Shown here in pieces: positions 41,548 to 54,179 of a DNA stretch of 64,000 bases (positions are counted from its first letter, which is position 1; the number at the start of each line of letters is the position of its first letter). The stretch lies in assembly GCA_964392435.1 (NCBI GenBank), contig CAYMOY010000002.1:116479-180478 (forward strand). Direction: 5' to 3'. The position numbers and the translations under genes are program-made. Under the pieces are notes generated by a model, which saw only the letters and a list, made by a program, of their open reading frames with translations, had not been told where the DNA came from and ran no database searches. The DNA is from Candidatus Micrarchaeota archaeon. GTDB taxonomy: Archaea; Micrarchaeota; Micrarchaeia; Anstonellales; Anstonellaceae.

Positions 41548-41569
41548 ATCATACAAGGTGCAGGGGGAG
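41548..41569 (+). repeat. att-core-like direct repeat of tRNA-Leu 3' end (atcatacaaggtgcagggggag)
   Basis: 20/22 identity to 54084..54105 (atcatgcaagatgcagggggag), which spans the tRNA-Leu 3' terminal 11 nt plus 11 nt of 3' flank. Followed leftward by ~100 bp homologous to the integrase upstream arm. Confidence 0.6.
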
Positions 41570-41616
41570 CAACACAAGGATGATGCTAGAGGCTGAAGGA
41601 TGGAAAAAAGAAAAAA

Positions 41617-42223
41617 TCAAGCTTTTTTGTCCTTCCTCAGGCACATGAACCAGTCAAGGCAGTATTTCCCCTCCTCCTTCTTTTCCATTCTTTCCTTTGC
41701 AACTCCGCACGAGCCAGGGGTGGGGATTATGACGTCGTCGCCAGGATACCAGTTGGCAGGCGTTGCTATCCCTTCGCTGTCAGATTTCTGCATGGCTACG
41801 AGCAGGCGCTTGATTTCCTCCATGTTCCTTCCGTTGGAAAGTGGGTAGTAAAGTATTGCCCTTACCTTGGCTTTCGCATCAATTATGAAAACCGCCCTCA
41901 CTGCCTGCGTGTTTGAGGCATTGGGCTGCACCATGCCAAACTTTTTTGCGACCTCCATCCTTATGCCCTCAATCAGAGGGAACTTGACCTCGACATTCTT
42001 CATTCCCTTGTACTCGATCTTTTCCTTGATTGTCCTAAGCCACGCGATGTGTGCATATATGCTGTCAATCGACAGCCCGATGAGCTCGCAGTTAAGGCTC
42101 CGCAAATCATCCTGCATGGATGCAAAGGTCATGAACTCGGTTGTGCAGACCGGTGTAAAGTCTGCCGGGTGGCTGAAGAGTATTACCCATTTGCCGGTGT
42201 AGTCTTCCGGGAATTTAAGAATG
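41617..42223 (-). pseudogene. peroxiredoxin (1-Cys/Prx6-like archaeal Prx), C-terminal part, split by IS insertion
   Basis: Reading upstream of the track ORF in frame gives ...ALGNILKFPEDYTGKWVILFSHPADFTPVCTTEFMTFASMQDDL... (peroxidatic-Cys region). N-terminal 20 codons lie at 42900..42958 on the other side of the IS. Confidence 0.7.
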
Positions 42224-42899
42224 TTGCCTAGTGCTCGCTAAATCCAGCGGGCGTAGCCCGCGAACCCGCCTTCAGGCGGGGGATACAGCGAGCACATTCT
42301 TCTTTTTGACCTGAAAAATAAGTTCCAATAGCGGCGCGGCGGCGCTTTCGCGCCGCCCATGTTTGGCCGACTATTGGAGTTGTAGACTATGACCAGCGAA
42401 AGCTTTGTGAGAAGACAGCACAGCGTAGGAATAAATGCCTTTCACTTTGAGTGGTGCCCAAAGTACAGGTACAAGGTGCTTGGGGGTAACTGGCTGAGGC
42501 GTATTCTGACTGAAAGTCTTTGCCAGACTGCCAAAAAATACGGCATTCAGATTTTTGCAATGGAAATCGCCCTTGACCACCTGCACATGTTCGTAAACCT
42601 GCCTGGCTTGCTTGGTCCAAGCCAAGCAATCAATCTCTTCAAGGGCAGGAGCGCCAAGGCAATATTCGAAAACTGCCCATCATTCAGGAAAACCTATAGG
42701 GCTGGGCACTTCTGGAGTCGTGGCAGTTTCTACAGGTCAGTTAGCAACGTCGGGGCTGACACGATTTACAGGTACATAACAGAACACAGAAGCAAGGAGA
42801 TTACAGAATCAGTTGTTGCGGTGGAAAAGGAGTTTGGGCAGATGAATCTGGTGTCCTTCATGTAGTCGAAAACTGCCCCCTTCAGGGGGCAGATATTTA
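42224..42899 (+). mobile_element. IS200/IS605-family insertion sequence (tnpA only) inserted in the peroxiredoxin gene
   Basis: Carries Y1/HUH transposase; subterminal hairpins cccgcc-ttca-ggcggg (left) and ctgccccc-ttca-gggggcag (right). Joining the flanks restores ...TTMGENILKFPEDY.... No target duplication evident, as expected for this family. Boundaries +/- 2 nt. Confidence 0.7.
42389..42865 (+). CDS. tnpA: IS200-like transposase TnpA (HUH Y1)
   Basis: LDHLHMFVNL (HuH), conserved Y in C-terminal SFYRSV/YRYI region, ~158 aa typical of IS200 TnpA. Confidence 0.75.
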   Translation: MTSESFVRRQHSVGINAFHFEWCPKYRYKVLGGNWLRRILTESLCQTAKKYGIQIFAMEIALDHLHMFVNLPGLLGPSQAINLFKGRSAKAIFENCPSFRKTYRAGHFWSRGSFYRSVSNVGADTIYRYITEHRSKEITESVVAVEKEFGQMNLVSFM

Positions 42900-42958
42900 T
42901 TCTCGCCCATCGTGGTTTTGGCTGTGAAGCGTGGGGCATCGTCCCCTATCAGCGGCAT
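42900..42958 (-). pseudogene. peroxiredoxin N-terminal fragment (MPLIGDDAPRFTAKTTMGEN)
   Basis: Manual translation. Continues as read-through into the IS hairpin in track ORF 42809..42997. Confidence 0.6.
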
Positions 42959-43054
42959 GCTCGATTGCTTGTTTGCAGGTTCGTCCATCCATCTCACCTC
43001 GCAAAAGGTTGCTGCATGAACATATAAAAATGTTTATGAATAATAATTCAAAAC

Positions 43055-51884: not shown

Positions 51885-52745
51885 CTATCTTCGCCTGAAA
51901 AGCTGCCTGAGGGTCTCCTTTATCTTGCCCCGCGTAATTACATCCCCATAATGGGAATATTTGTATTTCAGCCCTCTTTTCGTGACAAGGATGAACGACC
52001 TGTCATATTCCCTCTGGTAAAAGGCAAACTTGCTTTCCAGCCAATCTGGCTGCCTTGAAAGGCTCTTGCCAGTCTCGACGTCAAAGCAGAACTGCTTGCC
52101 TTTCCAATTGGCTACCAAATCAGGGCCACTTGTGGCGTTCATCCTAATATCGTCCGTGTACTTTCGAAGCTCGGTTTCAAGGATATAGCAAAAGAACGCA
52201 TGCTCCTTGCTCTCGTTGTGCCTTGTCTTCACCCAATAGTGGGCTGCGCCTGAAGTGCCAAAAGGGCTTGTCTTTATCACGTTATAGCCAAGCGTGTATA
52301 GCTTCCCCTTCTGCCTTTCCGTAAGGCTGCTTGAAAGGAAAAGGTTCCCGCTCAGGTCAAACTCCTTCTTTTCTTCCTCCTCCCAGTCGCTGTCAATAGC
52401 GGTTTCAGGCACTCTCAGCTTTTCGAGCCGTTCTGCTTCCCTTTCCGCCGCGAGTTTCTCTGCACGTTCCTTTTTCCTCTGCTCTTTTGCAAATTCCAGC
52501 TGGGTTCCCAGAAGTTTGCTTGAGGTTTGGTGATTCAAGTAAGTCAGCCCATCTACCTTTGCTGGAAAGACGCGGCAGTGGATTTCGCCATAAAGCCACC
52601 ACAGGATTCTGGCAATTGCAAAACCAATGACAAAAGGCAGCGCAGTCAAAACAGCCAGCCCGATGACTACTGGCACAAGGGCGAGGCCTAGCAAGACGAG
52701 AGCACCTATTACCAGTCGCTCTAGGAGCTCGTATTCGTTGACCAC
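51885..52745 (-). CDS. membrane-anchored protein with C-terminal PD-(D/E)xK-like (restriction-endonuclease-fold) domain; co-transcribed with integrase
   Basis: Two N-terminal TM helices, charged coiled-coil linker. ILETELRKYTDD...PDLVANWKGKQFCFDVETGKS fits the E...D...(D/E)xK arrangement. Stop 3 nt from integrase gene. Confidence 0.35.
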   Translation of the reverse strand: MVNEYELLERLVIGALVLLGLALVPVVIGLAVLTALPFVIGFAIARILWWLYGEIHCRVFPAKVDGLTYLNHQTSSKLLGTQLEFAKEQRKKERAEKLAAEREAERLEKLRVPETAIDSDWEEEEKKEFDLSGNLFLSSSLTERQKGKLYTLGYNVIKTSPFGTSGAAHYWVKTRHNESKEHAFFCYILETELRKYTDDIRMNATSGPDLVANWKGKQFCFDVETGKSLSRQPDWLESKFAFYQREYDRSFILVTKRGLKYKYSHYGDVITRGKIKETLRQLFRRR

Positions 52746-52747
52746 GC

Positions 52748-53956
52748 TTATTCCTCCAACAATTCCTTGTCCAGCCCCATCGCAAAAACCTTCTTGACCA
52801 GAAGCGCCTTCACCTCCGGGTCCTGCATAAGGACGTTCATTATCCCATTCCCCTGTTTGTTGTAGTCGCTGATGAGCACCTTTTCGTCAAACGGGTTGCC
52901 GCACCTGCCGCAGAAGGACTGCGTCGGCGAGTTCTTTTCCTTGCAGCGGGAGCAGATCCGAAGGTCGAGCTTGGGCTCTTTTTCGATTGGCTTGTCTTTC
53001 ATGGAATACATTTGCAGAAGCGCCGAGTCAACATCCCTGCCGGATAAATGAACATAGGTGGCAGCCATCTCGCTTCCCTGCGTCCAGCCGAAATACTCTT
53101 TCATTTGTGCTTCGGTCAGCTTGTTTGCGAGGGAAGTTGCTCGGCTGTGCCTGAACAAGTGCGGATAAATGCGTTTTCTTATGCCGCTTGCCTTGCTTGC
53201 CCTTCGGAGCATTGCGAGTATTGACGGGTACGAGCAAGGCACTGGCTGGTAGCGGGCAAGCCTTGCAGGCCATAATGGAGCGTCCGGATTGTTTTTGTCC
53301 GGATGTTCCTGAAGCCATGCGGCAAGAACCTGAGCGCTGGCAATTATTCTTACCCTTCTGCTGCCAGTCTTGCCGTTGACGATAAGCACAACCCCGTAAT
53401 TGTCGAACTGGACGTTCTTGAGCTTGAGGTAAAGCATTTCACCTATGCGGCAGCCGGACTCGTATAATGCCAAAACAAGCGCCTTGTCGCGTGGATTTGT
53501 GGTCGAGTTGGCGAGCTTTTGTGCCTCCTCAACGGTCAATAATTCCTCTGGCAGCTTGTGCTTTTCATTTTTCAGCCTTGGCTTGAGCCACTTTATGACC
53601 TTGGGAAATTCCTCGTCTTTCCCCAGAAGCCACTTGTAGAACATTTTGAGCACGATTTTGAAGTCGTACCTCGTATATTCCGCATAGTTTTTGGAGTCAA
53701 TGTCTGTAACCAGCCGAATAAGATCGGTCTTTGTCGCAGTCGAGAAATCCCTGTCGAGCCACTGGGCGAGCATTCGGACACAGTACATGCACTTGACAAC
53801 GCGGAGCTTGCCAGAGCCTTTGGCAAGGCGCATACGTGCGAAGTTTTCGATTTGTGTTTTTGCCTTCGCAGGCAAAGTCGAGGCTTTAAGCCGTTCCAGT
53901 TCCTGCTCGAAGTTGGTCTGCGATTTGTACATCACGTACTCGTTCATAGGGCTCAC
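52748..53956 (-). CDS. int: tyrosine recombinase/integrase (intact, 402 aa)
   Basis: C-terminal HLFRHSRATSL ... YVHLSG (R-H-R-Y catalytic pattern). ~140 bp from the 3' end of tRNA-Leu, same strand. Confidence 0.8.
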   Translation of the reverse strand: MSPMNEYVMYKSQTNFEQELERLKASTLPAKAKTQIENFARMRLAKGSGKLRVVKCMYCVRMLAQWLDRDFSTATKTDLIRLVTDIDSKNYAEYTRYDFKIVLKMFYKWLLGKDEEFPKVIKWLKPRLKNEKHKLPEELLTVEEAQKLANSTTNPRDKALVLALYESGCRIGEMLYLKLKNVQFDNYGVVLIVNGKTGSRRVRIIASAQVLAAWLQEHPDKNNPDAPLWPARLARYQPVPCSYPSILAMLRRASKASGIRKRIYPHLFRHSRATSLANKLTEAQMKEYFGWTQGSEMAATYVHLSGRDVDSALLQMYSMKDKPIEKEPKLDLRICSRCKEKNSPTQSFCGRCGNPFDEKVLISDYNKQGNGIMNVLMQDPEVKALLVKKVFAMGLDKELLEE

Positions 53957-54083
53957 CCCACGATGAGTCCCCTGTCCTGCTTGACCTTCTATATATACTT
54001 AGGCGAGACACGCAACGAGGTGAAGTTAGGGCATTGACGGATGACAGGCGAGGGGCTGTAAGATGCGGCGGTACACCTATAGA

Positions 54084-54105
54084 ATCATGCAAGATGCAGG
54101 GGGAG
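54084..54105 (+). repeat. att core at tRNA-Leu 3' end (atcatgcaagatgcagggggag)
   Basis: Direct repeat partner of 41548..41569. Confidence 0.6.
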
Positions 54106-54179
54106 AGATTCGAACTCTCGAAGGCGCTAAGCCACAAGGTCTTAAGCCTCGCCCATTTGACCGGCTCTGGAACCCCTGC
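54095..54179 (-). tRNA. tRNA-Leu (anticodon UAA), type II; CCA not encoded
   Basis: Hand-folded on minus strand: GCAGGGG-TT-CCA-GAGCCGGTCAAA-TGG-G-CGAGG-CTTAAGA-CCTTG-TGGCTTAGCGCCTTC-GAGAG-TTCGAAT-CTCTC-CCCCTGC-A. Confidence 0.8.

Follow-up and report, generated by a model that had tools for sequence, protein, structure and literature searches.

A probable integrated island at a tRNA-Leu gene of a Micrarchaeota archaeon, lying beside the remnant of an older related element

Little is documented about the ways in which DPANN archaea, whose genomes are small and which rely on other cells, gain and exchange genes. A locus of a Candidatus Micrarchaeota archaeon raises this question: is the DNA beside one of its tRNA-Leu genes an integrated element, where are its ends, and did it land on a gene that was already occupied? 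The locus lies in a stretch of 64,000 nucleotides (GenBank assembly GCA_964392435.1, contig CAYMOY010000002.1, positions 116,479 to 180,478), hereafter the window. An earlier note, made from the letters alone, had proposed a 12.5-kb island at tRNA-Leu, delimited by a 22-bp direct repeat and followed by an older integration. We put at roughly 0.8 the probability that window positions 41559-54105 form an integrated element, named E1 here (12,536 bp from core to core), a tRNA-Leu island beside the remnant of an older related element, E2. The integrated island of the earlier note is supported by an intact integrase, by a displaced tRNA end with an arm conserved across the integrase family, and by the absence of the cargo from this site in relatives.

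tRNA genes were called with ARAGORN, proteins were annotated with Pfam and PHROGs, and homology was searched with tblastn and nhmmer. The putative integration target is an intron-less tRNA-Leu(UAA) gene (54095..54179, minus strand), and its last 11 nt (CTCCCCCTGCA on the minus strand, 54095-54105) form the proximal attachment (att) core, attL. The gene of an intact tyrosine integrase, int1 (52748..53956, minus strand), encodes 402 aa from a GTG, with an ATG at 53947 as the likely start. It begins 139 nt from the tRNA 3′ end, in agreement with the intact same-strand integrase noted earlier at about 140 bp. The 22-mer ATCATGCAAGATGCAGGGGGAG (54084-54105) has one further copy in the window, at 41548-41569, with two mismatches (20/22 identical), and no such pair was found in 100 dinucleotide-preserving shuffles (0 matches). 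The 11-nt core occurs in exactly two perfect copies in the window. The recurrence of the tRNA 3′ end at the distal boundary thus exceeds chance expectation, and the tRNA match ends there as had been noted. Nor is the 22-bp match the only similarity, since it is the tip of a homology of ~700 bp (40905-41569 versus 53417-54105, 81-88% nucleotide identity) that takes in integrase residues 1-180, the upstream arm and the last 11 nt of the tRNA. Identity with the tRNA ends exactly 11 nt inside the gene, and alignments with the distal copy and with the tRNAs of relatives agree in placing the end of tRNA homology at the core.

The 22-bp length given earlier for the att core was not upheld. The crossover core is the last 11-13 nt of the tRNA, as comparison locus L018 shows: its distal copy has the sequence of the tRNA-Leu(CAA) variant of that locus, CCCTCCCTGCA, and immediately beyond ...CTGCA the host flank is unrelated. 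The presence of a local tRNA variant in a distal core fits real strand exchange. The remaining 11 nt of the 22-bp repeat (YYTTGTATGAT) are the start of the integrase-side arm of the older element, and they match at both ends in the window only because a second element adjoins the distal core.

The distal junction (attR, 41559..41596, minus strand, found with nhmmer) consists of a 27-nt element-side (P) arm, TCAGCCTCTAGCATCATCCTTGTGTTG (41570-41596), followed by the displaced 11-nt core (41559-41569). Arm and core together form a 39-nt motif, gTCAGACyCwAGCATCATCCTTGnGTTkCTCCCCCTGCA, and a motif built from seven sites gave a single match in the window (nhmmer, E 5e-12). The motif was also found at the distal ends of integrase-linked segments in L020 (4.4 kb from the tRNA), L018 (5.3 kb), L076 (8.3 kb) and L017 (four copies), with E-values of 1e-14 to ~1e-8 across loci, and the integrases beside it in these other Micrarchaeota contigs are 72-88% identical. 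Degenerate, more diverged versions bound units in L072 and L073. No conserved hairpin was detected in the arm-plus-core sites (z scores −1.9 to +1.2). On the other side, the integrase-side (P′) arm (53957..54094, minus strand, beginning TCTTGCATGATTCTATAGGTGTACCGC) could be aligned with the arms of L006, L018, L020 and L070. Two variants of this arm exist: variant A in the proximal copy of the window, in L006 and in the distal remnant of L020, and variant B in the distal copy of the window, in L018 and in the proximal copy of L020. A TATA-like box, TATATATAGAA (~53987-53997), lies in the P′ arm upstream of the int1 start and is probably the integrase promoter.

In L017, four arm-plus-core sites in the same orientation (2936-12973) split the locus into short units. 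One holds a radical SAM protein, an integrase and an ankyrin protein, another a ParE/DUF7557 toxin-antitoxin pair, and a third an S8 peptidase; the gene of the radical SAM protein is embedded in the integrase-side arm, between core and integrase.

The int1 protein has an Xer-like catalytic domain (PF00589, 3.4e-19; also matching PHROG integrases), and alignment to XerA shows a complete catalytic set (R170, K196, H266, R269, W291 and Y301). Its best match among solved structures is XerA 4a8e (E 1.7e-17), the best solved relatives being the Pyrococcus and Thermoplasma XerA proteins; the integron integrase IntI4 gave a weak, partial match (E 3e-7 over 75 residues). The C-terminus bears a CxxC...CxxC segment (residues 335-352), for which matches to zinc-ribbon Pfam models were weak and below the curated cut-offs. 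Homologs of int1 number thousands. The best 120 are mostly ~400 aa long and 51-96% identical, and every organism name on them is that of a Micrarchaeota-type archaeon, with some proteins annotated as XerA; the exact int1 protein was not on record with either start choice. Members of the family target the tRNA-Leu genes UAA (window, L006), CAA (L018, L077) and CAG (L070), which share the 3′ ending ...CCCTGCA.

The older integrase arm and truncated integrase that the earlier note placed directly beyond the distal repeat were recovered as the E2 remnant (40863..41558, minus strand), consisting of a variant B P′ arm (41445-41558) and a truncated integrase reading frame (40863..41444). By tblastn, integrase residues 1-180 lie at 41444..40905 with 89% amino acid identity to int1, and homology stops at 40905, residue 180; the C-terminal half was not found anywhere in the window, and no third core or arm copy that would close E2 was present in the window, including leftward of E2. 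The E2 stub and int1 (84% identical in nucleotides, 89% in amino acids) are about as diverged from each other as either is from the copies of L017, L018 and L020. A recent in situ duplication was rejected on this ground, and two separate acquisitions are favoured because the divergence resembles that between genomes and the two arms are of different variants. Two successive integrations at one tRNA, as proposed earlier, also gain support from the distal arm motif and from a parallel in L076. There, a tRNA-Leu gene is followed by core, arm, integrase, eight small genes, arm plus core, arm, integrase and a 278-aa partner protein, which is the tandem layout of the window except that both integrases are intact.

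An open reading frame (ORF) of 274 aa for a LAGLIDADG endonuclease (40023..40847, minus strand; LAGLIDADG_3 at 1.9e-12) abuts the truncation point of the E2 integrase, within a kilobase of 37.7% GC, and a convergent superoxide dismutase gene lies beyond it. Since this ORF abuts the truncation point, E2 lacks its remaining part as well as its distal att site. No homolog of the ORF was found in the other loci examined, and it is conceivable both as the cause of the E2 truncation and as leftover cargo.

These observations can be arranged into the following scheme. E1 would have entered at the 3′ end of tRNA-Leu(UAA) by site-specific recombination through its Xer-like tyrosine integrase, the gene of which would remain intact after integration. 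Its attachment site would comprise the 27-nt arm, a core of 11-13 nt identical to the tRNA end, and an arm of ~130 nt reaching into the integrase promoter. Integration would regenerate the tRNA from the identical core, place the integrase beside it, and leave the 27-nt arm with the displaced core at the far end. If E1 landed on a tRNA that already held E2, the E2 arm and integrase would come to lie just past the E1 distal core, as they do. E2 would later have lost everything beyond integrase residue 180, where the low-GC LAGLIDADG gene now sits. E1 itself would combine a conserved module (integrase, PD-(D/E)xK-fold partner and repeat-rich region) with ~10 kb of cargo for metal and redox homeostasis. 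The sequences show the architecture, att arms that are conserved throughout the family, a variable occupancy of the site and the tandem layout; from this arrangement we infer the recombination chemistry, the order of events, any present-day mobility and the functions of the partner protein, of the repeat region and of the cargo.

The occupancy of the site was compared in relatives, which are Micrarchaeota metagenome-assembled genomes (MAGs), several labelled Anstonellaceae; PurP was the query against species-representative genomes, and the matches were 77-86% identical. The right flank of the tRNA-Leu gene encodes two PurP proteins and RadA, which marks the host as archaeal, and synteny with the relatives runs from 64 kb down to a small gene (54473..54700) and the tRNA, where it ends. 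None of the window genes from 36-54 kb was found downstream of PurP in any of the eight relatives (8/8). The relatives thus do not hold these genes at tRNA-Leu without an integrase, 0 of 8 carrying the cargo there. In L003 and L007, tRNA-Leu(UAA) is followed directly by unrelated DNA, without arm, integrase or cargo; L006 shows the tRNA, the core and a 75-nt stub matching the integrase-side arm of the window, then a toxin-antitoxin pair; L001 carries a short 20-nt mini-repeat scar; and L002 and L004 have no tRNA-Leu at the PurP-linked position, as does L005, judged by the lack of a tRNA-Leu match. The PurP-linked tRNA-Leu site is variably occupied. The MAG of L003 carries an integrase 86% identical to int1 on another contig (L018), behind an intron-containing tRNA-Leu(CAA).

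Several features of the PurP-linked region were observed in the course of this comparison. ARAGORN misses the intron-bearing tRNA-Leu genes, which are those of most relatives, and these were read by eye. The PurP-linked tRNA-Leu(UAA) genes of L001 (11476-11681) and L007 (11337-11536) have two introns, in the anticodon loop and in the T-loop, the latter sitting just before the last 17 nt of the tRNA; those of L006, L020 and L076 have at least the T-loop intron, and the copies of the window and L003 are intron-less. A T-loop intron beside the integration core is compatible with occupancy, as L006, L020 and L076 are occupied. In the scar of L001 (11660-11770), a 20-nt sequence at the tRNA-Leu 3′ end, CCCCCCTGCRCTCACATTCG, is directly repeated ~90 nt downstream, which makes a miniature att-like scar at the same target. 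The tRNA beside PurP in L002 (11508-11581) and L004 (11528-11598) was called tRNA-Glu(CUC), on the opposite strand, and in L005 the spacer beside PurP contains tandem repeats of ~100 nt; this spacer is a rearrangement hotspot across the family.

Within E1, the gene directly after int1 encodes a partner protein of 286 aa (51885..52745, minus strand), whose N-terminal part forms two long helices and whose conserved C-terminal domain, of ~150 aa, has the PD-(D/E)xK nuclease fold (GPD...FDVETGK). It has no Pfam or PHROG match; among its 76 homologs, the three with a named source organism come from Micrarchaeota, and the protein may act as a nuclease. It is followed by a non-coding region of 327 bp (51558..51884) with iteron-like repeats, made of TAMGCKCA direct repeats and GCGCAGCT/GAGCAGCT inverted motifs. 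All elements examined have a repeat-rich region downstream of their integrase module, with five motif copies in the window, 16 in L017 (6002-6849), 11 in L018 (9094-9480), 12 in L020 (1445-2000) and five in L070 (11232-11557), and it may be a candidate origin or regulatory region.

Beyond the repeat region lies a threonyl-tRNA synthetase (ThrRS) paralog of 520 aa (49995..51557, plus strand) without the archaeal editing domain, matching only tRNA-synt_2b and HGTP_anticodon in Pfam. The short, editing-less form was found in only two other protein clusters, and the nearest full-length proteins, of ~630 aa with PF08915, are 75-81% identical to it. The sequences make it very likely that the island ThrRS is an accessory paralog, because the short form is narrowly distributed and its next relatives are normal full-length enzymes with PF08915. 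Its neighbours are a NikR-like regulator (49149..49541, plus strand; NikR_C) and two ZIP transporters (48306..49052, minus strand, and 47428..48288, plus strand), which together form a metal module (47428..49541). By analogy only, we hypothesise that the editing-less ThrRS may serve under zinc limitation as a zinc-sparing synthetase.

The other cargo genes are, by Pfam, a group on the minus strand (45507..47352) of DUF5320 (47095..47352), two NifX-like proteins (46393..46755 and 46752..47090) and a MinD/ParA-ferredoxin fusion (MinD/Fer4, 45507..46496), and on the plus strand an S-adenosylmethionine-dependent methyltransferase (44951..45547), a DsbD/CcdA-type membrane protein (43838..44950), an AdoMet decarboxylase-like protein (43427..43828) and DUF134 (43055..43420). 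Closest to the distal junction lies a peroxiredoxin gene split by an IS200/IS605 insertion sequence (41617..42988, minus strand; AhpC-TSA, 1-cysPrx_C and Y1_Tnp). Its N-terminal fragment is at ~42896-42988 and the remainder runs from ~42236 down to 41617; frame translations gave the peptides MPLIGDDAPRF... on one side of the insertion and ...FTPVCTTEF... on the other, and the IS200 tnpA gene lies at 42389..42865 (plus strand; Y1_Tnp). The gene content listed in the earlier note, including the IS200-disrupted peroxiredoxin, DUF134, the decarboxylase, the methyltransferase, the MinD-Fer/NifX/DUF5320 group, the ZIP transporters and the NikR-like regulator, agrees with these matches. Only the "Trx-CcdA fusion" was retained in part, as the DsbD/CcdA membrane domain was found and the proposed thioredoxin N-terminus had no Pfam match at E ≤ 0.01.

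Two contigs informative on the cargo, L023 and L024, came from scanning metagenomes with the first ZIP gene. L023 is colinear with window positions 43902-48286 and 49084-51566 at ~87% nucleotide identity and has ZnuABC in place of the second ZIP gene, so that its block also holds ZnuABC; in L024, colinearity extends from DUF134 to DUF5320 and resumes at the ZIP gene. The cargo parts in both are colinear, with 65-93% amino acid identity, different flanks and different insertions. Beyond the ThrRS gene, L023 encodes a tyrosine recombinase of 456 aa (18944-20314) that is 26% identical to int1 and has the same position and orientation, which suggests either an exchange of the integrase module or a hotspot of insertion at this place. 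In L077, the same integrase-plus-partner module is accompanied by more than 10 kb of metal-resistance cargo.

The composition of the island was compared with its surroundings. The tetranucleotide L1 distance is 0.16-0.27 across ~37-55 kb and 0.11-0.16 in the flanks, a mild deviation. Unrelated to the island, a second tetranucleotide outlier lies at 18000-23000 of the window (against the flank reference, L1 0.24-0.25 and Pearson r 0.75-0.78). Further to the left of E2, the last 12 nt of a tRNA-Ser(GCU) gene (36583..36668, plus strand) begin a 53-nt direct repeat in tandem (36657-36709 and 36710-36762, 77% identical). This repeat resembles an att scar that encloses no DNA, and four paralogous ORFs for small membrane proteins come after it (36806-38509).

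Several observations weigh against E1 being an integrated element in its entirety. The GC content of the island is host-like (0.48-0.58), as the earlier note had stated, and no recognisable replication, transfer, conjugation, capsid, packaging or virion genes were found in E1 with Pfam and PHROGs. Scans of IMG/VR with int1 and with the att motif returned no relatives, and a viral or plasmid form is therefore not evidenced. The cargo of L023 and L024 comes without an int1-type integrase or arm motif, and part of the cargo could be long-resident chromosomal DNA. The DNA beyond the tRNA differs in every relative and is not syntenic with the far flank of the window, so that an exact empty site cannot be reconstructed. 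Neither an excised circle nor an attP junction was found, nor a precise empty site whose downstream flank matches. The comparison loci are all MAG or metagenome contigs, and the IS200 insertion and the loss of the distal end of E2 point to decay. The strain of the window is present in the read sets SRR12133403 and SRR33558617.

Among the alternatives, the one that survives best holds that tRNA-Leu loci are integron-like accretion platforms, on which short integrase-less units, each with one to three cargo genes, the 39-nt site and a stub of the integrase-side arm, are moved by the integrase in trans, E1 being a large unit or a fusion. Arrays of 0.6-7 kb units bounded by core repeats in L017, L020, L072 and L073 are in keeping with it, as are several units that have no integrase remnant yet a consistent integrase-side arm stub of 35-75 nt, and the stub and toxin-antitoxin pair behind the tRNA of L006. 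However, ordinary tandem integration followed by integrase deletion gives the same pattern, and E2 is such a remnant; the sites have no conserved hairpins and hence are not attC-like, the window holds a single arm motif, and no free cassette circles were observed. We regard this alternative as doubtful. A broader proposal, equally tentative, is that Micrarchaeota at large possess a dedicated gene-accretion system at tRNA-Leu genes, built from an Xer-derived integrase with a putative C-terminal zinc ribbon, a PD-(D/E)xK partner and the 39-nt site. Such a system might stack and exchange tandem units, some of them integrase-less and mobilised in trans, and would thus be integron-like from different parts.

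A second alternative is that only a unit of ~2.5 kb (integrase, partner nuclease and repeat region) is mobile, and that the ~10 kb from ThrRS to peroxiredoxin are chromosomal DNA trapped by an integrase-mediated or homologous rearrangement between elements at different tRNA-Leu genes. The host-like GC of the cargo and its colinearity in L023 and L024 would be expected in that case, at least three tRNA-Leu targets per genome and possibly several copies per locus would offer substrates for rearrangement, and in Thermococcales integrases are documented to drive rearrangements between tRNA genes (PMC5495485). Against it, the conserved element-side arm directly abuts the peroxiredoxin end, as for an element interior, and a tyrosine recombinase, there a different one, likewise terminates the L023 block; the ThrRS, an accessory paralog, is sporadically distributed, and the integrase-plus-partner element of L077 carries a similar metal-homeostasis cargo of more than 10 kb. 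We consider trapping of the cargo quite unlikely and favour the reading in which the whole 12.5 kb is element DNA.

It is highly improbable, finally, that no mobile element is involved, int1 being a resident XerA-type recombinase and the distal copy an old segmental duplication from tRNA end to integrase N-terminus: the best solved relatives of int1 are XerA proteins, some homologs carry that name and the family occurs across Micrarchaeota at about 50-96% identity, but a housekeeping role is ruled out by the 1.5 copies in the window, the two intact copies ~8 kb apart in L076, the two within a few kb in L072 and a position that varies among close relatives, at different tRNA-Leu genes, while the distal arm motif is common to genomes with unrelated cargo and int1 is as diverged from the truncated copy as from those of other genomes.

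A tRNA-integrated island with a tandem remnant is a textbook event, and such elements are little described in Micrarchaeota; an initial literature search on Micrarchaeota integrases and islands returned only generic papers on bacterial islands. Together with its relatives, the locus of the window delineates a family of integrases that can be recognised by an att signature. This signature could help to map islands in fragmented MAGs of Micrarchaeota, whose contigs frequently end at exactly these sites. The cargo provides a concrete and testable link between a mobile island and zinc economy, through an editing-less ThrRS amid zinc and nickel transporters. If the proposed accretion system is real, it would shuttle metabolic and stress modules, such as a zinc-sparing ThrRS with transporters, among genome-reduced DPANN cells.

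Among known systems, the elements ICESt1 and ICESt3 of Streptococcus and the related CIMEs line up in tandem at a single att site, and some units of these arrays have no integrase but keep their att sites. E1 differs from these in belonging to another domain of life and another integrase lineage, and trans mobilisation is hypothetical here. An integron was ruled out, as there is no IntI-type enzyme and the arm-plus-core sites have no conserved hairpins; nor is E1 recognisable as a provirus or integrated plasmid, with no hallmark genes in Pfam or PHROGs and no IMG/VR relatives. For the ThrRS, the closest parallel is T2 of Anabaena, a duplicated paralog used under low zinc, with lost or impaired editing and a link to zinc economy (PMC4787780). 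T2 is bacterial, Zur-regulated and chromosomal and retains a degenerate editing domain (PMC4787780), whereas the island ThrRS is archaeal-type and island-borne, its editing domain is wholly gone, and zinc regulation would apply to it only by analogy.

The XerA resolvases (PDB 4a8e, 5hxy) are the closest solved relatives of int1 by sequence, and their catalytic motifs align. In contrast to them, int1 is ~110 residues longer, with the C-terminal CxxC...CxxC segment, and it is multi-copy, variable in location, and tied to tRNA-Leu and att repeats rather than to a dif site. The pTN3/TKV4 elements of Thermococcales are likewise archaeal elements in tRNA-Leu genes, and their integrase can also rearrange chromosomes (PMC5495485). 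They are of the SSV type, with a 41-bp att inside the integrase gene, which is split on integration, whereas int1 stays intact and its core lies at the tRNA 3′ extremity; an SSV-type (type I) element was ruled out here, int1 being one continuous 402-aa ORF with the core in the tRNA, outside the integrase gene. The bacterial and archaeal tRNA and tmRNA islands compiled by Islander (PMC4383910) share with E1 an integrase beside the regenerated tRNA, a displaced fragment at the far end and accessory cargo. Compared with those islands, the displaced fragment of E1 is unusually short (11 nt) and hard to call without the conserved arm, and the int1 family targets several tRNA-Leu isoacceptor genes.

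The archaeal type II (pNOB8-type) integrases (PMC8371274) resemble int1 in that the gene stays intact after integration, a tRNA is the target, and a direct repeat of the tRNA lies at both ends. Archaeal elements are also known to integrate in tandem at one locus and to lose an integrase later (PMC8371274), and neither Micrarchaeota or other DPANN archaea nor the int1 family appear in that review of archaeal tyrosine recombinases. Compared with type II elements, the core of E1 is confined to the last 11-13 nt of the tRNA and replication or virion genes are not recognisable; E1 resides in a DPANN host, a Micrarchaeote, its integrase is Xer-like with a C-terminal CxxC...CxxC segment, and it possesses a conserved PD-(D/E)xK partner gene and a repeat region.

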